Below, one piece after another: positions 1,943 through 64,000 of a DNA stretch of 64,000 nt. Within the stretch, counting starts at the first letter, position 1; each line of letters begins with the position of its first letter. The notes under the pieces are model-generated. The model ran no database searches and was not told where the DNA came from. It saw only the letters and a list, made by a program, of their open reading frames with translations. The stretch comes from Bacilli bacterium (GTDB lineage: Bacteria; Bacillota_I; Bacilli_A; RF39; UBA660), in NCBI GenBank assembly GCA_017410525.1, contig JAFQQQ010000002.1, forward strand, positions 205,591-269,590, given 5' to 3'. The translations under genes and the position numbers were made by a program.

Positions 1943-3559
1943 ATGAGAGAAGTATATATATTTGGACATAAAAAGCCTGATACAGATTCAGTAACTTCAG
2001 CTATAGCCTTATCTTATTTGAAAAATCAGATAGGTATTAAATCTAAACCTGTGGTATTAGGAGATATAAATAAAGAGACTCATTTTGTGTTAAAATATTT
2101 TAATATAGAAAAACCAGAATACTTAGAAGATGTTAAACTACAAATAAAAGATTTAAATTATTATAAAGATTGTTACGTAAGTAAGTTTGACTCGATTAGA
2201 AAAACATATGACTATATGGGAAGCAAAAATATTACGGGTGTTCCTATTGTAGATAATGAAAAAAAGTTTATAGGTCTTCTAACTTCTAAAATGATTGGTT
2301 CCGAATTAATAAATGGTAATTTTACTAAATTAAATACATCCTATGATAATATTTTGGATGTGCTTAAAGGGGAAGAAATTCTAAGATTTGATGACGAAAT
2401 AAGTGGTAATATATTAGCTGCTTCTTTTAGAAGTACAACTATTTTAAATACAGTAGAATTTAGAAAAGATACAATAATGATTATAGGAGATAGGCATAGC
2501 GTTATAGAAGCTGCGGTTAATAGTTATATAAAATTGTTAGTAATAGTAGGTAATTTAGAAATAAAAGAAGAACACTTATCTATTGCTAGACAAAATAAGG
2601 TAAATATTATAAGAACTCATTTTGATACATTTCATACAGCTAAATTGATAGGTTTATCTAATTATGTAGATAATTTACTTACTGATACTAGAACTATTAG
2701 TTTTAACGAAAATGATTACTATGATGATTTTAAAGATAAAAGTGTAAAATTAGGGCACAATAACTATCCAGTAATAGATGATAGTGGAATATGTTTAGGA
2801 CTTATAAGAATTACTGATATTAAAAATATGAATAGAAAACAAGTAATACTTGTAGATCATAATGAGGCTGTTCAAAGTATTGATGGGCTTGATGAAGCAG
2901 AAATATTAGAAATAATAGATCACCACAATATTAGTTCATTAACAACTAAGATGCCAATCAATTTTAGAAATATGACAGTAGGTAGTACTAATACAATTAT
3001 TTATTCGATATTTAATGAAAGTAATATAAATATTCCAAGTGACATTGCTGGTATTATGTTAAGTGGTATTATTTCTGATACATTAAAGTTTACTAGCCCA
3101 ACAACTACTGAATATGATAAATATGTAGCTTATAGACTTGCAGATATTGCTCAAATTAACATAGATGTATATTCTAATAAAATGTTTAAAGCGGGAACTG
3201 ATTTAAAGGGAAAAACAATTCAAGAAATTATTCAAGGGGATATGAAAATATATGAATCTAATAATGAAAGAATTGCTATATCACAAGTAATAACTTTAAA
3301 TTCAGAAGATATATTAGAAAAACGAGAAGAATATATTAAGAAAATAAATGAGATGAAAGAAAATAGAGGTTACGATATAATGGTAGTATGTGTAACTGAT
3401 ATAATTAAGGACGGTTCATATATATTCTTTGATGAATCAAGTAAAAGTGAGATCGCTAACGCGTTTGGATTTGAAGAAATAGAACAAGGTTATTTTTTCT
3501 CAAAATGTTTATCTAGAAAAAAACAATTAGCGCCCCTAATTATGAGTGTAGTAAAATAG
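1943..3559 (+). CDS. CBS-domain-containing family II (DHH/DHHA2) inorganic pyrophosphatase
   Basis: GHKKPDTDSV at the N-terminus, DHNE and DHH motifs, a long CBS-like insertion, and a C-terminal DHHA2-like region. 538 aa fits the CBS-PPase subfamily. Confidence 0.8.
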   Translation: MREVYIFGHKKPDTDSVTSAIALSYLKNQIGIKSKPVVLGDINKETHFVLKYFNIEKPEYLEDVKLQIKDLNYYKDCYVSKFDSIRKTYDYMGSKNITGVPIVDNEKKFIGLLTSKMIGSELINGNFTKLNTSYDNILDVLKGEEILRFDDEISGNILAASFRSTTILNTVEFRKDTIMIIGDRHSVIEAAVNSYIKLLVIVGNLEIKEEHLSIARQNKVNIIRTHFDTFHTAKLIGLSNYVDNLLTDTRTISFNENDYYDDFKDKSVKLGHNNYPVIDDSGICLGLIRITDIKNMNRKQVILVDHNEAVQSIDGLDEAEILEIIDHHNISSLTTKMPINFRNMTVGSTNTIIYSIFNESNINIPSDIAGIMLSGIISDTLKFTSPTTTEYDKYVAYRLADIAQINIDVYSNKMFKAGTDLKGKTIQEIIQGDMKIYESNNERIAISQVITLNSEDILEKREEYIKKINEMKENRGYDIMVVCVTDIIKDGSYIFFDESSKSEIANAFGFEEIEQGYFFSKCLSRKKQLAPLIMSVVK

Positions 3560-3641
3560 TGTTAAACCACTATTTTTTTCTATTTATCAATTGATATTAA
3601 CTCTTTTCTATGATAAAATTAATAAAGAATGAAGGTGTATT

Positions 3642-4163
3642 ATGGAAGTTTATGTACCAGATATTTATCAAGAAAATATATATAAATTAAATTATGAAAC
3701 TCTACTTTCTAGGGGGATTAAATGCTTGTTTTTTGATTTAGATAATACTATAGCTAAAGTTAAAGATACAATGCCTAAAGATGCTGTAAAAGAATTATTT
3801 GATAATTTAAAAAGAAAAGGTTTTAAAATACTTATTACTTCTAATAGTATTAAGGCTAGGGTAAAACCATTTGCAGAAGAATTGAAAGTAGATTATATAT
3901 CAAGTTGTAAGAAACCTAATATAGAAAAAATAGATGAGTTTATAAAAAATAGTAAATTTGGATTAGATGAGATAGCTATAATAGGGGACTCTATGATGGA
4001 TGATGTAGTATGTGGAAACACAATAGGTATAACTACTGTACTATTAGATCAAATGAGTAAAATGGAATTTCCTATTGCTCGTTTAAAAAGAATTAAAGAA
4101 AAAAGAATACAAAAAAAATTAAGAGATAAAAATCTGTTTACTAAAGGAAGATATTATGTCTAA
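3642..4163 (+). CDS. yqeG: YqeG-family HAD phosphatase
   Basis: FFDLDNTI (HAD motif I), ITSNS, GDSMMDD. Sits immediately upstream of yqeH, as in Bacillus. Confidence 0.8.
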   Translation: MEVYVPDIYQENIYKLNYETLLSRGIKCLFFDLDNTIAKVKDTMPKDAVKELFDNLKRKGFKILITSNSIKARVKPFAEELKVDYISSCKKPNIEKIDEFIKNSKFGLDEIAIIGDSMMDDVVCGNTIGITTVLLDQMSKMEFPIARLKRIKEKRIQKKLRDKNLFTKGRYYV

Positions 4164-5145
4164 ATGTATAGGTTGTGGAGTAAAATTACAAACTATAAAT
4201 AATAAGACTCTAGGTTATACTACTAATTTAGATAATAAATTATGTGAAAGATGTTTTAGAATAAGAAATTACAACGATTATAAATTTGTTATAAAAGATA
4301 ATACTGATTATATAAATATTTTAAAAGATATAAATAAGACTAATGATTTAGTAGTGCTTGTAGTAGATTTATTTAATATAAGTCAATATTTAAATGATAT
4401 ATCAAAATATATAGATAATAACGTCTTACTTGTATTAACTAAAAGAGATATATTACCTAAATCTTGTTATGATGAAAAGTTTAAACAATACTTTAAAAAT
4501 TATAATCTAAATATATTAGATACAGTAGTAGTAAGTAGTAATAAAAATTATAATTTAGATACACTTTATGAAAAAATAAATAGTTATAAAACAAGTAATA
4601 AAGTATATGTAGTGGGGTTTACTAATTCTGGCAAAAGTACTTTGATAAATAAAATAATTTATAATTATTCAAATAATGATATGGTTATAACTACTAGTAA
4701 TTTACCATCTACTACAATTGATTCTATAACTGTTAAAGTAAATGATGATTTAATTTTAATAGATACTCCAGGACTACTTGATGATGCAGATATAATTAAT
4801 TTTATAGATTCAAAAACTCTAAAAAGAATTATTCCAAATAGAGAAATAAAACCTATTACATATCAAATAAAAGATAAACAAACTATATTAATAGATGAAT
4901 TAGTTAGGTTAGATTTAATAGATAAAAATAATATGACTGTTTATATGTCTAATAATTTGGAAATAAAAAGATTATTTAAAGATACAAACGATTTAAAAAA
5001 TTTAAAAAAACATGAGTTAGATATAAGCGATGATAATGATGTGGTAATACAGGGGCTTGGATTTATAAAATTCACACATAAATCAAAAATAGTTTTATAT
5101 ACAAAGGAAAATGTTGCTGTTTATGTTAGAAAGAACTTAATATAA
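4156..5145 (+). CDS. yqeH: Ribosome-biogenesis GTPase YqeH (circularly permuted)
   Basis: Zinc ribbon CIGCG...CERCF. The G4-like TKRD precedes G1 GFTNSGKST and G3 DTPG. Overlaps yqeG by 8 nt. Confidence 0.85.
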   Translation: MSKCIGCGVKLQTINNKTLGYTTNLDNKLCERCFRIRNYNDYKFVIKDNTDYINILKDINKTNDLVVLVVDLFNISQYLNDISKYIDNNVLLVLTKRDILPKSCYDEKFKQYFKNYNLNILDTVVVSSNKNYNLDTLYEKINSYKTSNKVYVVGFTNSGKSTLINKIIYNYSNNDMVITTSNLPSTTIDSITVKVNDDLILIDTPGLLDDADIINFIDSKTLKRIIPNREIKPITYQIKDKQTILIDELVRLDLIDKNNMTVYMSNNLEIKRLFKDTNDLKNLKKHELDISDDNDVVIQGLGFIKFTHKSKIVLYTKENVAVYVRKNLI

Positions 5146-5154
5146 GGTGATAAT

Positions 5155-6000
5155 ATGAAAAATAAAACAGAAAAAAATAATAATTTATTTATAATAATTT
5201 TATTTGCTATTGTGTTAGTTTTAGTATTGTTTTTGCCTAAAATTTATGAGTTTATAGAAGCTGAGAAGTTACCTGAAGTAGAAAAAAAAGAAGAAAAAGA
5301 AGAAACGGAAGAAAAAATAGTAAATGAAGAAACATTGAAAAATATACATTTTCCAATAATGAGAAATAGCGTTTATGATTTTAATACGTATTATAGTTTA
5401 GATAAGTTTACTATTTCAAATATGTCTAATAATGATATATTATATAATGCTTTTATGGATATATATGAAGGCAATATGACAACGTCAAATATTACTGGCA
5501 GTTGTACATCAACACCAAAACAATTTAGTGTGGATTATCTAGAACTTAGAATTAAAAATATACTTGGTAAAAATGTAAAGTATAATTTAGAATCATTCTA
5601 TGTACCAGAAGATTCAACTAGTAACTATAAGGGAACTTGGGTTTATGATAGTATTAATGGTAGATTTATTTATAATGGTTTATGTTCTTATAAGGCAACC
5701 AATACTAAGTATTATAATTTAGAAGAATTAATAAGTGCTAAATACAAAGATAGCGATATTGTTGTAAATTATTATGTAGGATTTGCTAAAGTAGTAGATA
5801 ACAACTATGTAATTTATAGCGATGCTGGCATGACAAAAGAAATACATAATGGAACATTTACTTCTTTAGAAGATTTAAATAATATATTTAAATCAATTAA
5901 TAAAAACAATAAAAAAATATATAAATATGTATTTAAAAACACATTGTGTAGTTATAATGAATATTGTTTATATGAAGGAAAATGGGTAAATGAAGTTTAA
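5155..6000 (+). CDS. Membrane-anchored hypothetical protein
   Basis: N-terminal TM segment LFIIILFAIVLVLVLFLP, a Glu/Lys-rich linker, then a globular region. No family recognised. Confidence 0.6.
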   Translation: MKNKTEKNNNLFIIILFAIVLVLVLFLPKIYEFIEAEKLPEVEKKEEKEETEEKIVNEETLKNIHFPIMRNSVYDFNTYYSLDKFTISNMSNNDILYNAFMDIYEGNMTTSNITGSCTSTPKQFSVDYLELRIKNILGKNVKYNLESFYVPEDSTSNYKGTWVYDSINGRFIYNGLCSYKATNTKYYNLEELISAKYKDSDIVVNYYVGFAKVVDNNYVIYSDAGMTKEIHNGTFTSLEDLNNIFKSINKNNKKIYKYVFKNTLCSYNEYCLYEGKWVNEV

Positions 6001-57190: not shown

Positions 57191-58015
57191 ATGGTTTTTA
57201 AGGTGGAAAAAAATAAGAATTATACAGTAATGAGTAATTACCATTTGAGAGATAAAAACTTATCTTTGAAAGCAAAAGGCTTATTATCATTTATGCTTAG
57301 TTTACCAGATGATTGGGATTACTCATTAAATGGTTTATGTTCTATATGTAAAGAATCTGAAGGAGCAATAAAAAGTACATTAAAAGAGTTAAAAGATAAT
57401 GGATATTTGGTTATAGAAAAAGTACGAGGGGAAAAGGGATATTTTGAATATAACTATATTATTTATGAACATCCATATACATTAGAAAAGGAGAAAAACA
57501 ATCCAGAGGGTAAAAATCCACCTGTGGATTATCCAATGGTGGAAAATCATACCCAAATAAATACTAATGAACAAAGTATTAAAGAACAAATAGATAGAAT
57601 AGATAAAACCATAAATGAAGATGAGGAAAAAATTTCTTCATCTTTTTCTTTAGAAGAACATCACGCTATAACTAAAGATTTAGTTGAAAGAGAATATTTA
57701 GCAGAAGATGATGTAGAACTATACAAGTATGATAAATTTTTTAAGGAAATTTTAAAAAAACAAAAATTTACTGATGTAATTTCTATAACTCACTATATTA
57801 TTTCTAGTGTTAAAAGTCGGCATTTTATAGATGAGTTTGATAATAAGATAGAGAATAAATTTGGATATTTAAAAACATCAATTGAAAATAATATTGAAAT
57901 GTTTAAAAGACGTGAAATAGAATGGGATGATGAATTAGGATGGTTTAGGGAAGTGGATAACGATGATAAAGAATTAGATTCTTTTTATGACGATTTTGAT
58001 TATGAAATAACATAA
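57191..58015 (+). CDS. Replication-initiator-like winged-helix protein (HTH_36/RepA_N-like N-terminus)
   Basis: YTVMSNYHLRDKNLSLKAKGLLSFMLSLPDDWDYSLNGL...LKELKDNGYLVIEKVR matches the pattern common in element-borne Rep/DnaD-like proteins. The family name is from memory. Confidence 0.6.
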   Translation: MVFKVEKNKNYTVMSNYHLRDKNLSLKAKGLLSFMLSLPDDWDYSLNGLCSICKESEGAIKSTLKELKDNGYLVIEKVRGEKGYFEYNYIIYEHPYTLEKEKNNPEGKNPPVDYPMVENHTQINTNEQSIKEQIDRIDKTINEDEEKISSSFSLEEHHAITKDLVEREYLAEDDVELYKYDKFFKEILKKQKFTDVISITHYIISSVKSRHFIDEFDNKIENKFGYLKTSIENNIEMFKRREIEWDDELGWFREVDNDDKELDSFYDDFDYEIT

Positions 58016-58445: not shown

Positions 58446-58687
58446 ATCCTATCGCCTTTCTTTTGTTCTTTTACTACATTACCATTTTACACTTTTTTTG
58501 AATTTTTGTCCACATAACGCTATGAAATTCATTTTTAAAAAATTAAATTATGAAAATGGACATTTTTAATATTATTTGTTATGATAATAATGTAGTAAAT
58601 AGTCTTTAAAAAAATATGGGAGGATAGAAATGTTTAAATCAAAACTTGTGATGCTTTCATTTCTGACCAAAGAAAGGAGGAGCAAGA

Positions 58688-59552: not shown

Positions 59553-59813
59553 ATGAAAAAAATTAAGAAAGAAAGATCAGTACCAAAATGGGTTTTACGA
59601 AATCTACGATTGTATGGGAATTGTTGTTGTGGATACGATTTAATAAAAAAATATGGTGAAAAGAAATTATTAGAAAAATTAGTTAAATTTGGATTTGAAT
59701 GTAGTTTAAGAGTTGTACCAGATCCAGATGCAAGAACAAGAAGAAAAATGAAATATCCACCATCAGCTTACTATATTTTAGAAGTTGATAAGGTACTGAT
59801 TACTAACAAATAA
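59553..59813 (+). CDS. Hypothetical 86-aa protein in the antitoxin position upstream of MazF
   Basis: MKKIKKERSVPKWVLRNLRLYGNCCCGYDLIKKYGEKKLLEKLVKFGFECSLRVVPDPDARTRRKMKY... Its stop TAA (59811-59813) abuts the MazF TTG start. I can see no AbrB/RHH/MazE-like pattern. Confidence 0.55.
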   Translation: MKKIKKERSVPKWVLRNLRLYGNCCCGYDLIKKYGEKKLLEKLVKFGFECSLRVVPDPDARTRRKMKYPPSAYYILEVDKVLITNK

Positions 59814-60194
59814 TTGTTTTTATCAGTAAAGAAAGGTGAAGTTTATTTAATCGATTTGAAGGATACATATTCAAATGTCCAATGTGGGAAAAGACCTTGT
59901 TTAGTCATTCAAAACGATTATGGTAATGAATATTCACCGACAACAATAGTAGTTCCCATTACAACAAAAATTAAGAAGACTTATATGCCTGTTCATGTAG
60001 TTATTGAAAAGGGAAGTTATTCTAATAAGGATCGAGAAATGGTTTTATGTGAATGTATCTTAACAGTATCAAAAGATCAAATAATTAATCATTTAAGAAC
60101 TTTTGATGAAGATACGATGCAGAAAATTGATAAGGCTTTAGAAGTATCATTAGGAATTGGCGTGAAAGGGAGGAATCAAAAATTAAAAAGTTAA
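59814..60194 (+). CDS. mazF: MazF/PemK-family endoribonuclease toxin
   Basis: KKGEVYLIDLKDTYSNVQCGKRPCLVIQNDYGNEYSPTTIVVPITT matches the PemK signature. The TTG start is translationally coupled to the upstream ORF. Confidence 0.8.
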   Translation: MFLSVKKGEVYLIDLKDTYSNVQCGKRPCLVIQNDYGNEYSPTTIVVPITTKIKKTYMPVHVVIEKGSYSNKDREMVLCECILTVSKDQIINHLRTFDEDTMQKIDKALEVSLGIGVKGRNQKLKS

Positions 60195-61037: not shown

Positions 61038-61507
61038 TGAATTTTATTGGTGCAGTAGTGCATTATTCCGTTGACTGTGTAGATGAATCTAAAACAGCAG
61101 AAAACGGAAGAGAAATTTGTAGTCAGTATAGACCACTTGTAGAAAAAAGAATTAAAAGATTATTAGCAACACCAATGAACTCTGCAAGTATTGTACTTTT
61201 TACATCTGGAAATAGAAGTAAAAATTCTTTTGAAGAAAAACTAATACAAAGAGTTGCTTGGAATGATGATCAGATAACTAATTTTATGAATAACATTTTG
61301 TTATTAGAACAATATGATAAAATGGCAGGTTTATATTTGAAACTTAAATATATTTATGATAAAACTGATAAACAAATTGCAAAAAAAATGAAAGTAACAG
61401 ATAGAACTTTAAGAACTTATAAAACAAGGGCGTATTTTCAAATTGCAGTGTGGTCTAATAAAGTTGAATATATTTATAACAAAACTTTTCATTTTAATAT
61501 TGATTGA
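61037..61507 (+). CDS. Sigma-70 region-4-like HTH protein (element-type sigma/regulator)
   Basis: C-terminus KTDKQIAKKMKVTDRTLRTYKTRAYFQIA resembles a sigma region 4.2 HTH. GTG start abuts the csp stop. Confidence 0.5.
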   Translation: MNFIGAVVHYSVDCVDESKTAENGREICSQYRPLVEKRIKRLLATPMNSASIVLFTSGNRSKNSFEEKLIQRVAWNDDQITNFMNNILLLEQYDKMAGLYLKLKYIYDKTDKQIAKKMKVTDRTLRTYKTRAYFQIAVWSNKVEYIYNKTFHFNID

Positions 61508-61563
61508 TATATTTGATGTGGAAATATCCACATCCTGCTACATACAAAGGAGTTGAATATTTT

Positions 61564-62712
61564 ATGAAAAAAAGAAATATTTTAATTATTAGTGCATTAA
61601 TAGTAGTATTAGTATCTATTGGTATATATTTATTTATACAACATACAAATAAAATAACTTTAAAGGAATCTAATTTTATTTTTGAACTTGGGGATAAAGT
61701 TCCTTTTGAAGTTGAATATTATTTAAAAGATAAGGATAAAGATAAAATATCAAATTCAAAAATAAGATTTGAAAATGATGCAATGTTTGATACTTCAAAC
61801 AATGAAATTAGAACAATAGATTCAAAGTTTTTAGATGTTGGAAAATATAAAATGTATATTGAGTATAAGGATACTAAGTATCACTTTAATATTAAAGTGA
61901 AAGATACAACAGCACCTAATTTTATTGATTTTATGGATGAAATTATATTAGAACAAAATGCTGTAAATGTAGATTTGTTAAAATATTATGAAGCATCTGA
62001 TTTAAGTAGTTTAACGATAAGCATTGAAAGTGATTATGATATTGAAAAAACTGGTGAATATAAAGCAATAATTAAATCTAAAGATGTTTATGATAATATA
62101 GTTACAAAAGATGCAACAATTAAAGTAATTTCTTATGATGATTTAAAAAATACAGAAGTAACGAAATGCTTAGATGGTACAATATTTAAAAGTGAAAAAA
62201 GAATTGAATCAGAAAAGAAAAAAATAGAAACTAATCAATCTAGTTCTAATAATAATACAACCCCTAAAATAGAAATAGTTGATAATAACAACAATAGTAA
62301 TAATTCAAAGAATGAATCAAATAACAATAGTTCTAGTTCATCATCTAATAATACTCCAACTATTGTTAATGCTACATATAGAACAGATATTTCAAATGAA
62401 ATAGTAAATAAGATAAATGAATATCGTAAAAATAATGGTCAAACTGTGTTACCTGTAACTTCTGAAGCACAAGCTGAAGCTGACAGGAGAGCAAAGGAAA
62501 TTGTATCAAATCCTACTCATGAAGGTTCTTCTTATGGTTTTGGGGAAAATATAGGTGGAGGAGGAATTGGTACTGATTTCTTCACATTATGGAAAGAAAG
62601 TTTTTCCCACAATAACGCAATGTTAAGAGAGCAAAATACAGCAATAGCAGTAAGTATATATCAATATAATAATCAATGGTATGCAGTTGCTGTTTTTAGA
62701 ATGAATTATTAA
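61564..62712 (+). CDS. Membrane-anchored secreted protein with a C-terminal CAP/SCP (YkwD-like) domain
   Basis: N-terminal TM (ILIISALIVVLVSIGIYLFI), a middle beta-rich region, an Asn/Ser low-complexity linker, then YRKNNG...AEADRRAKEI...HEGS...GENIG...WKESFSHNNAML. ATG at 61564 preferred (AAGGAG RBS). Confidence 0.7.
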   Translation: MKKRNILIISALIVVLVSIGIYLFIQHTNKITLKESNFIFELGDKVPFEVEYYLKDKDKDKISNSKIRFENDAMFDTSNNEIRTIDSKFLDVGKYKMYIEYKDTKYHFNIKVKDTTAPNFIDFMDEIILEQNAVNVDLLKYYEASDLSSLTISIESDYDIEKTGEYKAIIKSKDVYDNIVTKDATIKVISYDDLKNTEVTKCLDGTIFKSEKRIESEKKKIETNQSSSNNNTTPKIEIVDNNNNSNNSKNESNNNSSSSSSNNTPTIVNATYRTDISNEIVNKINEYRKNNGQTVLPVTSEAQAEADRRAKEIVSNPTHEGSSYGFGENIGGGGIGTDFFTLWKESFSHNNAMLREQNTAIAVSIYQYNNQWYAVAVFRMNY

Positions 62713-62747
62713 AATTTCTCAATATGGGAAATTTTTTTATGCAAGAA

Positions 62748-62769
62748 ATTATGTGGAATTCCACATAAT
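62748..62769. repeat. Perfect 22-bp palindrome ATTATGTGGAATTCCACATAAT
   Basis: Read directly and self-complementary over 62748-62769. Half-site TTATGTGGAA recurs at 62792-62806 and, inverted, at 62844-62858. Confidence 0.85.
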
Positions 62770-62791
62770 ATTTTTTATGTAGAACTTTTAG

Positions 62792-62858
62792 TTATGTGGA
62801 ACTTTTATAAAAAACATCTTGTAATTAAGGCGTTTCTATTATAAAAAGTTCCACATAA
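62792..62858. repeat. 15-bp perfect inverted repeat pair TTATGTGGAACTTTT / AAAAGTTCCACATAA, 37 bp apart, abutting the recombinase gene 3' end
   Basis: 62792-62806 and 62844-62858 are exact reverse complements. Confidence 0.85.
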
Positions 62859-62865
62859 TTTTTTT

Positions 62866-63867
62866 CTATTTCATATTATTTTTCAACCAACTATCTAAAT
62901 TGTCTTTTTTAGTATTACTATATTTACTTTTAGTGTTTATCGTTTCTGAATTTCTAAGAATTTCTTGTCTTTGCTTTTTCGAATCTGGAGTTGCATATAT
63001 CTCTGTTGATGTTATTGAACTATGACCTAGAAATTCTTTAACATATAAAAGCGGAGTTCCATTATTATACAAATGTGTTGCTTTGGTATGTCTAAAACTA
63101 TGAGGATGATAATTTCCATTGAATTTATCTGGATATATTAAATTTAATTTTAAAACTATTTTTTTAATCATTTTATTAATACTATATCTTGAATATTTTT
63201 TCTTATAATTAGAATAAAATAAATAATCATCTCCATAGTTAATATAAAATTCTTTTAAATATTTATTGATTAACTTTACTAATTCTTGACTGATAGGTAC
63301 AATTCTAGTTTTATTACCTTTGCCATATAAAGTAATACTTGCATTATCAGATAAATTTAAGTCATCTAATTTAATATTTATTAATTCAGTTACTCTTGCC
63401 CCTGTTTCATAAAGTACACATATCATCGTTAATTTTTTTAAATCTTTGATACTGTTTAAATAATTTATCATTGTTTTTATTTCATTTTCTGTAAAATATG
63501 ATATCATTTTATTAGGAACCTTTTTATTCTTAATACTAAGAATTTGAGAACAAGATCCAAATAAATCAGGTTCGTTTATTTGGACATACTTGTAAAATGA
63601 TTTTATACAAGCAAGTCTTTGGTTCCTAGTTTGTATTGAAACAGTTCTATCTGTTTCTAACCAATCTAGAAATTGGATTATTACTTCCTTAGTAATTGAT
63701 TCAATTTCTATTTTATTTGGTTTAATATTTTTTTCTTTATTCATAAATTCTAACAACAAATAAAATGTAGTTGAATATGATGATTTAGTGTTCATTGAAT
63801 AATTACATTCACCAATTAAATAACTTGTAAGAAATTCTTGAACTAATTTACTAAATCTATTAGTCAC
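62866..63867 (-). CDS. Tyrosine site-specific recombinase (XerC/D / phage-integrase family)
   Basis: SAM-like N-terminal domain. ETGARVTEL (catalytic Arg context), HSFRHTKATHL (HxxR), LGHSSITSTEIYA (catalytic Tyr). GTG start. Confidence 0.85.
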   Translation of the reverse strand: MTNRFSKLVQEFLTSYLIGECNYSMNTKSSYSTTFYLLLEFMNKEKNIKPNKIEIESITKEVIIQFLDWLETDRTVSIQTRNQRLACIKSFYKYVQINEPDLFGSCSQILSIKNKKVPNKMISYFTENEIKTMINYLNSIKDLKKLTMICVLYETGARVTELINIKLDDLNLSDNASITLYGKGNKTRIVPISQELVKLINKYLKEFYINYGDDYLFYSNYKKKYSRYSINKMIKKIVLKLNLIYPDKFNGNYHPHSFRHTKATHLYNNGTPLLYVKEFLGHSSITSTEIYATPDSKKQRQEILRNSETINTKSKYSNTKKDNLDSWLKNNMK

Positions 63868-64000
63868 CTAAATCACCCCCTCATATAAACTTTTAGAAAA
63901 AGTATCATTAGCATCGATAATTTTATTTTTATTATAATCAGTAAAATGAAGATAGTATTCTGTTTCATGAATACTTTTATGTCCCATATATTTATAAAGA
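63868..64000 (-). CDS. C-terminal end of a second tyrosine recombinase (5' part beyond the window)
   Basis: My reverse-complement translation is ...LYKYMGHKSIHETEYYLHFTDYNKNKIIDANDTFSKSLYEGVI*. It shows the LGH...T..YxH catalytic-Tyr motif. The TAG stop (63868-63870) abuts the GTG of the downstream recombinase. Confidence 0.7.
   Translation of the reverse strand, partial: LYKYMGHKSIHETEYYLHFTDYNKNKIIDANDTFSKSLYEGVI

Follow-up and report, generated by a model that had tools for sequence, protein, structure and literature searches.

A motif array behind the CAP gene of a Bacilli bacterium as one probable end of a recombinase-in-trio transposon

The array of direct and inverted repeats described here, in a window of 64 kb (the whole stretch of 64,000 nucleotides that was analysed), is probably an end of a recombinase-in-trio (RIT) transposon whose insertion point immediately follows the CAP gene terminator, a reading to which we give a probability of about 0.8. 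The RIT element could be identified and its boundaries delimited. The array is the ritC-proximal end, the other end being located beyond the window (Table 1), and the element is a separate unit of ~3.2 kb nested inside the XRE/ParB/Rep-like/CAP island. This mobile unit is constituted, in order, of a 20-22-bp palindrome, a 6-bp spacer, an inverted repeat (IR) of ~93 bp, the genes ritC-ritB-ritA on the minus strand, and a second ~93-bp IR. On either side of it stands one copy of an imperfect 6-bp direct repeat, which is present only once in the unoccupied site. For annotation, this assigns the motif array to a small nested transposon and not to the surrounding island.

Table 1. Features of the ritC-side end of the RIT element and of its immediate surroundings, in window positions.
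Feature	Position	Strand	Remark
CAP gene terminator, hairpin and T-run	62713-62739	+	Host-island DNA; target context just upstream of the insertion point
Outer 6-mer AAGAAA, palindrome-side junction	62743-62748		Imperfect direct copy of the target 6-mer AATAAA
Accessory palindrome TTATGTGGAA / TTCCACATAA	62749-62768		22 bp with the flanking A/T (62748-62769)
Inner 6-bp spacer TATTTT	62769-62774		Between inner palindrome arm and half-site a
Half-site a, TTATGTAGAAC	62775-62785	+	Outermost half-site of the ritC-side IR
Half-site b, TTATGTGGAAC	62792-62802	+	Direct with a; a to b, start to start, 17 bp
IR interior, 45 bp	62803-62847		Imperfect hairpin inside
Half-site c, GTTCCACATAA (plus-strand letters)	62848-62858	-	Inverted relative to b; followed by a T-run to 62865
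ritC-side terminal IR, ~93 bp	62773-62865		Partner ~3.06 kb further on, window-equivalent ~65.83-65.93 kb, past the window end
ritC, 333-aa Xer-like tyrosine recombinase, third gene of the trio	62866-63867	-	Pfam Phage_integrase and SAM-like domain
ritB, 3' part	63868-64000	-	Cut by the window end; ritA and second IR outside the window

Each ~93-bp IR contains three TTATGTnnnn half-sites at fixed spacing, with a and b in direct orientation and c inverted. The palindrome is an additional pair of half-sites, 6 bp outside one IR, made of two c-type half-sites placed back to back. Together, the inner palindrome arm, the spacer and half-site a form a dif-like core, TTCCACATAA-TATTTT-TTATGTAGAA. In contig L001, the two IRs are identical save for one 1-nt indel. 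Half-site a had been regarded in the preliminary description as degenerate; the sequence is indeed present, but since the same variant is found at both ends of the element, it is not a decayed copy.

The perfect 22-bp palindrome ATTATGTGGAATTCCACATAAT was confirmed in the window sequence at 62748-62769. The 15-bp inverted pair reported with it was also retrieved, as TTATGTGGAACTTTT (62792-62806) and AAAAGTTCCACATAA (62844-62858), the latter copy stopping 7 nt short of the stop codon of the recombinase ORF (62866-63867, minus strand). Counting both strands, the exact 10-mer TTATGTGGAA occurs four times in the 64 kb, against 0.31 ± 0.56 expected from 100 dinucleotide-preserving shuffles, none of which contained four or more (0/100), and all four matches fall inside 62749-62858, that is within 110 bp. 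The cluster at 62748-62858 is thus highly non-random. With one mismatch allowed, 17 matches were obtained (10.45 ± 3.33 expected; 17 reached by 5/100 shuffles), five of them inside the cluster. The 12 others, including 58508-58517 and 61514-61523, are a chance-level number, and two related copies that had been counted with the array are thus statistically unsupported as members of it, although both sequences exist: TGTCCACATAA at 58507-58517, in the XRE region, and GATGTGGAAATATCCACATC upstream of the CAP gene, whose coordinates are 61515-61534 and not 61516-61535 as first given. Both copies also occur in islands free of the trio, and are therefore unrelated to the RIT element. The CAP-upstream palindrome is present in 10/10 such islands, with a central base change in one of them, and the XRE-region site is unchanged in seven, mutated in one and not found in two. 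We found no evidence for the earlier suggestion that the same protein regulates the CAP gene and the XRE promoters.

The recombinase genes, of which two had been announced, are actually three, the second being cut by the window end and the first lying outside the window. In contigs L001-L003, an identical ritC is preceded by genes of 316 and 327 aa; in L001, the trio occupies one strand at 2683-3666 (327 aa), 3656-4606 (316 aa) and 4607-5608 (333 aa), and all relatives show the same layout. The best heterologous matches of RitA, RitB and RitC were the first, second and third genes of the trios of pHG1 and Bacillus sp. S3, with respective E-values of 5e-39/6e-42 for RitA, 5e-29/2e-29 for RitB and 1e-66/3e-71 for RitC, while cross-position matches gave E-values of 1e-15 or weaker. 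The catalytic R...HxxR...Y signature is present in RitA (GLRISD, HSLRH, TMSYLD), RitB (GLRVSE, HDLRH, TEYYLH) and RitC (GARVTE, HSFRH, TEIYAT). All three proteins were matched by Pfam Phage_integrase and had Xer models as best-scoring ones (XerC 79-167 bits, XerD 86-164 bits), none of them reaching the XerC and XerD equivalog cut-offs of 335 and 330.

Canonical RitA has two sequential core-binding domains (PMC8138268). With 327 aa and a catalytic domain starting at residue 140, the RitA described here has room for one core-binding domain only, not for two. For comparison, the catalytic domain of pHG1 RitA begins at residue 231, behind a SAM-like domain (126-204) that is itself preceded by a further 125 residues. 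RitC is known for an extra conserved C-terminal helix (PMC8138268). The alignment of our RitC with that of pHG1 reaches residue 330/333, and the RitC C-termini have in common, as judged by sequence alignment, the motif L-x-x-W-L (NLDSWLKNN, ALLEWLHSL, ALLTWLSEL).

Natural empty sites were obtained from trio-free islands, located in metagenome contigs via a look-up of the cold-shock protein. Ten metagenome copies of the island had neither the recombinases nor the exact 10-mer, and nine of these share the CAP/157-aa junction, without the palindrome and with AATAAA once. The comparison with an empty-site junction, suggested in the preliminary description, thus separated the array from the island. 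The empty CAP site reads TTTTTTTATGC AATAAA AAAATCAATCC, and the filled one ...ATGC AAGAAA (palindrome...element) AATAAA AAAATCAATCC; one empty copy (L037) and one filled contig (L003) came from the same sample, ERZ28653904. The CAP gene terminator, which folds as a 9-bp stem followed by T7, is unchanged in the empty sites L035-L044. A second pair was found in a related lineage, at a site designated locus X, with TTAGTT once when empty and TTAGTT...TTTGTT when filled. At this locus, the trio occurs in both orientations, the palindrome always stands on the same chromosomal side, the palindrome centre flips with the trio, and the sequence of the inner spacer differs among samples. The accessory palindrome belongs to the inserted DNA, and L029 and L031, which represent further loci of this lineage, carry it without any change. 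Related copies were found in at least 20 distinct flanking contexts, identical or near-identical elements sit at different loci, and numerous contigs of 3.0-3.16 kb terminate at the repeats. No circle junction was detected in any contig, and a megablast search of plasmid and phage collections with the element gave no match.

The architecture of the ends is conserved among relatives. From the first base of a to the last base of c, 27 distinct repeats all measure 81-84 bp, and TTATGT is invariant. The variable positions of the three half-sites co-vary with one another and with those of the palindrome across ~10 related lineages. For the b/c column pairs 24/78, 25/77 and 27/75, both sides had changed in 14, 10 and 6 of the 27 sequences, respectively. 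In 6/8 lineages, position 7-8 distinguishes half-site a from b, c and the palindrome, and the palindrome arms are always c-type. The spacing between palindrome and a is 6 bp at all palindrome-bearing ends that were parsed, and a scan for CATAA-N6-TTATG recovers the same cores. In the L011/L054 lineage, the first 10 positions of a, b and c are the same, which indicates that heterotypic cores are not universal. Consensus folding of the IR interior revealed no conserved central hairpin beyond the b/c pairing. Fourteen complete copies were available. A single palindrome is found in 12 of them, on the ritA side in seven and on the ritC side in five. The outer 6-mers of these 12 are direct and at least 5/6 identical in ten copies, L029 and L054 matching at 3/6 and 4/6 only; as the 6-mers are A/T-rich, a 5/6 match is only moderately improbable (~0.07 per pair, by rough estimate). 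The two other copies, L024 without palindrome and L047 with two, have outer 6-mers that are not direct repeats, and they are not explained by simple circle integration. The idea that the palindrome centre always has one orientation with respect to the coding strand, considered for the P0095 lineage, was dropped as the P0106 lineage shows the opposite.

Several other explanations of these data were weighed. The preliminary description took the array for an att site (core and arm) or an iteron-type origin of the XRE/ParB/Rep-like/CAP island. Its idea of a recombination site stands, in that the site is that of the adjacent tyrosine recombinases, but the attribution to the island is barely credible. 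Integrase-type genes are indeed adjacent, direct and inverted copies of the 10-mer are clustered, and genes for a ParB-like and an HTH_36 Rep-like protein are present in the island; however, the ten island contigs have neither array nor recombinases, the array recurs inverted beyond the trio, as a terminal IR rather than a lambda-type core/arm site, and it moves with the trio to unrelated chromosomal loci. As for iterons, the array lies 4.7 kb from the Rep-like gene (57191-58015). DnaA boxes were rejected as well, as TTCCACATAA resembles TTATCCACA loosely only and the array is missing from the trio-free islands. It is also very unlikely that the palindrome is a pre-existing landing pad or the footprint of an earlier visit, outside the mobile unit. 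Such a pad would account for a palindrome placed outside the IR and at one end only, for the copy without palindrome (L024), and for the solo palindrome-like sites, with other specificity bases, located less than ~600 bp from three RIT copies (L019:1329, L005:2999, L012:7120). However, no palindrome is present in the empty sites of two independent loci, a given lineage has its palindrome unchanged at different loci that share nothing but the 6-mer in their flanks, and the presence of a specific 20-bp sequence at every target would be beyond chance. Slightly less tenable still is a palindrome acting as a mere intrinsic terminator (hairpin and T-run) that insulates the element: 62748-62769 with ATTTTTTATG was the sole terminator-like site flagged by a terminator scan of 61400-63000, but the palindrome arms copy the half-site of the element and co-vary with it, their distance to half-site a is fixed at 6 bp, the palindrome is found at either end, and the empty site already provides the CAP gene with a terminator. 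A secondary insulating role may nevertheless exist.

Two further readings concern the IRs, and both are unlikely, the second slightly more so than the first. One is that the IRs serve mainly for inversion of the trio in place, as an invertible switch, which would give the two orientations seen at locus X. Recombination between inverted repeats inverts the segment between them, the outer junctions of the two orientations at locus X are identical, and the polarity of the inner spacer and of the far outer 6-mer is reversed, all of which is compatible with such a switch. However, the palindrome centre flips with the trio while its side remains the same, a pattern that a single IR x IR inversion cannot yield, and the many distinct insertion loci and the clean empty sites correspond to true transposition. 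Inversion may occur as a side reaction of the RIT element. The other reading is that the active form of the repeats is a folded single strand, in which b pairs with c and the palindrome forms a hairpin, as in the attP of CTX phage or the attC of integrons; a hairpin-ended intermediate has been suggested for Sphingobium RIT elements (PMC5737581). In the window, the flanks of b and c extend the pairing to a stem of ~19 bp, the whole end folds (z = -5.4), and b and c co-vary. Complementarity beyond the 10-11-bp half-sites is nevertheless not conserved in relatives, e.g., in the P0095 and L008 lineages, and covariation extends to half-site a, which has the orientation of b and no sequence to pair with, so that recognition of duplex DNA by proteins fits better. 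Covariation otherwise cannot separate inverted protein sites from stems.

As regards the movement of the RIT transposon, we tentatively propose that the palindrome is a mobile adaptor, which in a circular form would create two equivalent heterotypic dif-like cores usable in either permutation, the Rit proteins dividing the a-type and c-type half-sites among themselves. The half-sites would be putative binding sites of the three Xer-like Rit recombinases. A heterotypic core, CATAA-N6-TTATG, would be made of the outermost a-type half-site, the 6-bp spacer and a c-type palindrome arm, with strand exchange presumably taking place inside the spacer, and the dif-like core would be the crossover site of the circular intermediate. 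Excision as a circle would bring the palindrome between the two IRs and generate the two equivalent cores, the predicted circle joint being ...GTTCTACATAA-AA(G/T)AAA-TTATGTGGAATTCCACATAA-TATTTT-TTATGTAGAAC... Depending on the core used for integration, the palindrome would then come to lie on the ritA side or on the ritC side of the element. The target would be an A/T-rich 6-mer similar to that of the element itself and adjoining a T-tract, typically the tail of a terminator; at the CAP locus, the predicted target sequence is TTTTTTTATGCAATAAAAAAATC. The outer 6-mer at this locus is likely the crossover (overlap) region, and the 6-bp overlap may set both polarity and target choice. If true, this would be the first concrete mechanism of RIT transposition: the element would encode its own Xer/dif-like system and direct it to the T-tracts of terminators.

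RIT elements occur widely, on bacterial chromosomes as well as on plasmids. A 2023 survey states that their transposition was never reproduced, and lists target specificity, empty site and movement as not tested (PMC10214605). A full-text literature search found no later mechanistic work on RIT elements; in PMC12306157, the same abbreviation denotes rho-independent terminators. From the locus and its relatives come natural empty/filled pairs whose junctions are resolved to the base; they also define the inserted unit, including a palindrome at either end, the 6-bp duplication, the T-tract target and the dif-like set of half-sites. These defined junctions and half-sites turn the open question of RIT movement into specific experiments, and give clues to a poorly understood class of transposons. 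The element is of a known kind, and the mechanistic detail is new as far as checked, although part of the end anatomy may already be described in Ricker et al. 2013.

Among other systems, we compared XerC/XerD-dif and the elements exploiting it (IMEX such as the CTX phage, and the pdif modules of Acinetobacter plasmids). The dif site has separate XerC and XerD arms, and E. coli dif, GGTGCGCATAA-TGTATA-TTATGTTAAAT, resembles the present core in its 11-bp arm, 6-bp spacer and 11-bp arm, in the CATAA ending and TTATGT start, and in the two arm types. XerC/XerD-dif is a single 28-bp site at the replication terminus and depends on FtsK, whereas here the recombinases are element-encoded, three in number and scored far under the XerC/XerD equivalog cut-offs, the sites are multi-copy and placed in long IRs at transposon ends, apparently not at a chromosomal terminus, and the targets are T-tracts without recognisable arms.

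Tn554, strand-biased circularizing elements (SE) and GInts also encode several tyrosine recombinases and show 6-bp junction sequences that vary from copy to copy. SE and Tn554 carry over 6 bp from the donor flank (PMC10214605), which is reminiscent of the variable inner spacer at locus X. This likeness is descriptive; the element has no TnpC, Srap or Tfp-like fourth protein, its ends are long IRs, and the 6-mer is duplicated (one copy when empty, two when filled). With Tn916 and CTnDOT, whose type of integration involves coupling sequences, it shares the putative circular intermediate, a putative mismatch-tolerant 6-bp crossover region and a preference for A/T-rich targets, but those are large conjugative elements with a single integrase, arm-type sites and Xis, and without such terminal IRs.

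The archetype of RIT elements is ritABC of Cupriavidus metallidurans CH34, with copies on pHG1 of C. necator H16. RIT elements were reportedly described by Van Houdt et al. in 2009 and 2012, the main descriptive paper being, it is said, that of Ricker et al. 2013. The likeness of our element to them lies in the three adjacent tyrosine recombinase genes on the same strand, in A-B-C order and orthologous position by position, in the flanking IRs, the palindrome beside one repeat and the multiple copies and loci, and in the TTATG(T/C) half-sites, which are common to this element and to the distant trios of pHG1 and Bacillus sp. S3. It differs in its RitA (327 aa vs 410-420 aa in canonical RitA, with no room for the extra N-terminal core-binding domain), in its IRs (~93 bp with three half-sites vs 28-51 bp in the RIT papers compared), in its host, an uncultured low-GC member of the Bacilli, and in that the inserted unit, the 6-bp duplication and the target are defined from natural empty/filled pairs. 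Plasmid pHG1 has been named as RIT-rich, and a palindrome beside one repeat has been noted for proteobacterial RITs (PMC3414803). In pHG1, we found a 32-bp palindrome adjoining the ritA-side repeat.

The exact 10-mer TTATGTGGAA, searched on both strands, had 4 matches in the 64-kb window, all within 62749-62858, for a shuffle expectation of 0.31 ± 0.56 (none of 100 shuffles held 4). With one mismatch allowed, 17 sites were found against 10.45 ± 3.33 expected; 5 lay inside the cluster, and the 12 outside it, including those near 58508 and 61514, are at chance level. All sequences listed in the preliminary description were found in the window, the palindrome upstream of the CAP gene being moved from 61516-61535 to 61515-61534. 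With a probability of about 0.95, the array is the end of a nested recombinase-in-trio (RIT) element, as regards both identity and boundaries. The exact RitC sequence was found on three metagenome contigs, where it is encoded by the last of three tyrosine recombinase genes on one strand, with products of 327, 316 and 333 aa (RitA, RitB, RitC); the window is cut off within ritB. By BLASTP, the three proteins paired with genes 1, 2 and 3 of the trios of pHG1, the Cupriavidus necator H16 megaplasmid, and of a Bacillus sp. S3 plasmid (E-values, respectively, of 5e-39 and 6e-42 for RitA, 5e-29 and 2e-29 for RitB, 1e-66 and 3e-71 for RitC), and matches across trio positions were far weaker. pHG1 is rich in RIT elements (PMC3414803, PMC2864759). 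The R/HxxR/Y residues are kept in all three proteins, for which the best-scoring models were Xer, with scores far under the Xer cut-offs. In canonical RIT elements, RitA has 410-420 aa and its catalytic domain begins at about residue 225-231, whereas RitA of the window lineage (327 aa) has this domain from residue 140 and therefore lacks the extra core-binding domain, a feature of the RitA subgroup (PMC8138268).

Inverted repeats of ~93 bp, which begin with TTTTATGTAGAAC and end with CACATAATTTTTTT, flank the trio on contig L001; their sole difference is one 1-nt indel. The ritC-side repeat holds the direct half-sites a (TTATGTAGAAC) and b (TTATGTGGAAC) and the inverted half-site c (GTTCCACATAA), and all three recur inverted upstream of ritA; TTATGTAGAAC, previously described as degenerate, is thus a proper half-site. 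We compared the end anatomy of about 10 lineages, using 27 distinct repeat sequences. From the first base of a to the last base of c, the repeats measured 81-84 bp, and TTATGT was invariant; the bases after it varied by lineage (GGAA, AGAA, TGAA, TAAG, CTAA, GAAG), a, b and c changing together. Such co-variation could reflect a hairpin, and the b/c column pairs indeed showed both-sided changes in 14, 10 and 6 of the 27 sequences. However, half-site a co-varied too, though it has the same orientation as b and nothing to pair with, and pairing outside the half-sites was not conserved among relatives, which favours half-sites read as duplex DNA by proteins. The distant pHG1 and Bacillus trios have TTATG(T/C) half-sites too, and in pHG1 a 32-bp perfect palindrome stands against the ritA-side repeat, matching the "overlapping palindromic sequence" mentioned for RIT elements (PMC3414803). 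Also, a stretch of ~35 bp between the ritA-side c and the ritA start (L001:2632-2682, ~65.79-65.84 kb in window terms and outside the window; ..AAAATWGTATTGTATTCATAAAAWAAGGAG) is conserved between lineages with different half-sites, with an equivalent in all relatives. With its promoter-like TTGTTA-17-TAAAAT, it may serve ritABC as promoter or operator; a protein bound at c would then be in a position to autoregulate the trio.

Empty sites were sought via the cold-shock protein of the surrounding island, which is on record in many contigs, and 10 island copies without the trio were found. In nine, AATTTCTCAATATGGGAAATTTTTTTATGC AATAAA AAAATCAATCC and then a convergent 157-aa gene come after the CAP stop; L038, the tenth, has a divergent island and another gene downstream. 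The filled allele, in the window and in L001, reads TTTTTTTATGC AAGAAA (insert) AATAAA AAAATCAATCC, the insert being TTATGTGGAATTCCACATAA TATTTT repeat-ritC-ritB-ritA-repeat ...CTACATAA. The comparison with empty junctions proposed in the preliminary description thus gave nine junctions that lack the insert and carry the 6-mer once. Therefore, the palindrome belongs to the inserted DNA, and the mobile unit lies between imperfect direct copies of a 6-mer that was present once in the target. The array had been read as a recombination site or an iteron set of the surrounding island. The former was right in kind but not in owner, which is the nested RIT element, since the nine trio-free islands with this junction lack the palindrome; the iteron reading is rejected, the array being the end of that element. 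Sample ERZ28653904 contained an empty scaffold (L037, 311 kb) and a filled contig (L003, 3.3 kb) for the CAP locus, so that both alleles coexist, which points to a mixture of strains or to insertion and excision that are still going on. A second empty/filled pair came from a related lineage, at a locus (locus X) with a 265-aa gene on one side and a gene for a nucleoside phosphorylase on the other: the empty site reads TCACTTT TTAGTT GTAAAAAAAAA and the filled one TCACTTT TTAGTT (element and palindrome) TTTGTT GTAAAAAAAAA.

In the window element, only the ritC end has the 22-bp palindrome, which is separated from the outer edge of the repeat by 6 bp. Among 14 copies with both ends visible, 12 had one palindrome (ritA end, 7; ritC end, 5), L024 had none and L047 had one at each end. 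Of the 12 copies with a single palindrome, 10 had outer 6-mers in direct orientation that matched at 5 or more of the 6 positions; in L024 and L047, unlike most of these 12, the outer 6-mers were not direct repeats. Wherever an end without a palindrome was parsed, at least three T stood right before the 6-mer; these are target DNA, as the empty sites show, and mostly come from the tail of a terminator hairpin. The palindrome bases were in every case those of the half-sites of its own lineage, and its distance to half-site a was always exactly 6 bp, so that arm, spacer and a read CATAA-N6-TTATG. The arms are always c-type at positions 7-8, where half-site a differs in 6 of 8 lineages; by sequence, this is therefore a putative core with two unlike arms, as in E. 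coli dif, whose two arms differ. Solo palindrome-like TTATG...CATAA sites occur within ~600 bp of three RIT copies (L019:1329-1348, L005:2999-3018, L012:7120-7136), with specificity bases other than those of the resident element; such sites may have been left behind by other RIT lineages that used the same intergenic hot spots.

These ends could be produced by a circle in which the palindrome sits between the repeats (repeat-6-palindrome-6-repeat), and either of two equivalent cores would recombine with the target. Similarity of the 6-bp overlaps (TTTGTT and TTAGTT at locus X, AAGAAA and AATAAA in the window) would set polarity, one junction keeping the target 6-mer and the other that of the element. 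Indeed, the CAP locus and locus X each have one target-type and one element-type 6-mer at their junctions. At locus X, the trio was found in both orientations with identical outer junctions; the palindrome was always on the phosphorylase side, and its asymmetric centre (AA/TT) flipped with the trio, the pattern expected from the circle model. The model does not account for the copies with zero (L024) or two (L047) palindromes, and we hold the proposed crossover and circle tentatively, at slightly less than even odds. Samples that agreed in locus and orientation also differed in the inner spacer (TTTGTT, TTTTAT, CATATT), which hints at repeated exchange at the spacer-bearing core and recalls Tn554 and SE elements, which carry over 6 bp (PMC10214605).

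RIT elements have been known since 2009, so that the array, as the end of such a transposon, is in itself nothing unusual. More than 1,000 RitC homologues were found; among the best 120 (80-93% identity), many were on contigs of ~3.0-3.16 kb. A genome scan gave 14 related loci (75-91% identity), nearly all in MAGs of uncultured Bacilli; here too, several were on ~3-kb contigs with the repeats at their ends, as is typical when a repeat present in many copies interrupts assembly. Searches with individual RitC variants placed copies in at least 20 distinct flanking contexts. Accessible studies give short RIT inverted repeats (28-51 bp), note the palindrome only in passing, and state mobility, target and empty sites as untested (PMC3414803, PMC5737581, PMC10214605). 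Ricker et al. 2013 aside, we found no description in the accessible literature of a short-RitA lineage of uncultured Bacilli, of the three-half-site repeat, or of a palindrome that travels with the element and is found at either end, nor, in the accessible RIT literature, of the 6-bp duplication and T-tract target.

The window (25% G+C) is chromosomal DNA of a spore-former, in which spoVA genes and a pyruvate phosphate dikinase gene extend to 55640, and the island adjoins the latter. Past the RIT element, the island continues with three genes without assigned function and an HTH gene. The left part differs in L035 (YhcG_C, CotE-like), and the right flank differs between contigs (HsdR, ABC transporter or others); from this variation, the island itself looks mobile or mosaic. 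The 86-aa ORF beside the MazF/PemK gene had no Pfam match; the two genes probably form a type II toxin-antitoxin pair in which this ORF encodes the antitoxin.

Features of the island and of the RIT end in the window
Feature	Position	Strand	Remark
XRE regulator, ParB-like, HTH_36 Rep-like, divergent XRE regulator	from ~55.8 kb		start of island, in this order
MazF toxin, cold-shock protein, sigma-like protein			after divergent XRE regulator, in this order
86-aa ORF and MazF/PemK toxin gene	59553-60194		ORF stop 59813, toxin start 59814
Palindrome GATGTGGA-AATA-TCCACATC	61515-61534		between sigma-like ORF and CAP ribosome-binding site
Secreted CAP-domain protein	61564-62712		last island gene before RIT
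ritC, tyrosine recombinase	62866-63867	minus	

The outlying motif copies had been tentatively linked to regulation of the CAP gene and the XRE promoters by the protein that acts on the array, an idea that gained no support, as both copies occur in trio-free islands. GATGTGGAAATATCCACATC, before the CAP gene, was found in all 10, with one base altered at its centre in a divergent island. The XRE-region site TGTCCACATAA was unchanged in 7, mutated in 1 and not found in 2. Thus, neither is tied to the presence of the window RIT insertion. The palindrome before the CAP gene shares ATGTGGAA with the RIT half-site. It forms an 8+4+8 hairpin (DNA fold -7.7 kcal/mol, z = -4.6) and may act on the CAP gene as operator or attenuator.
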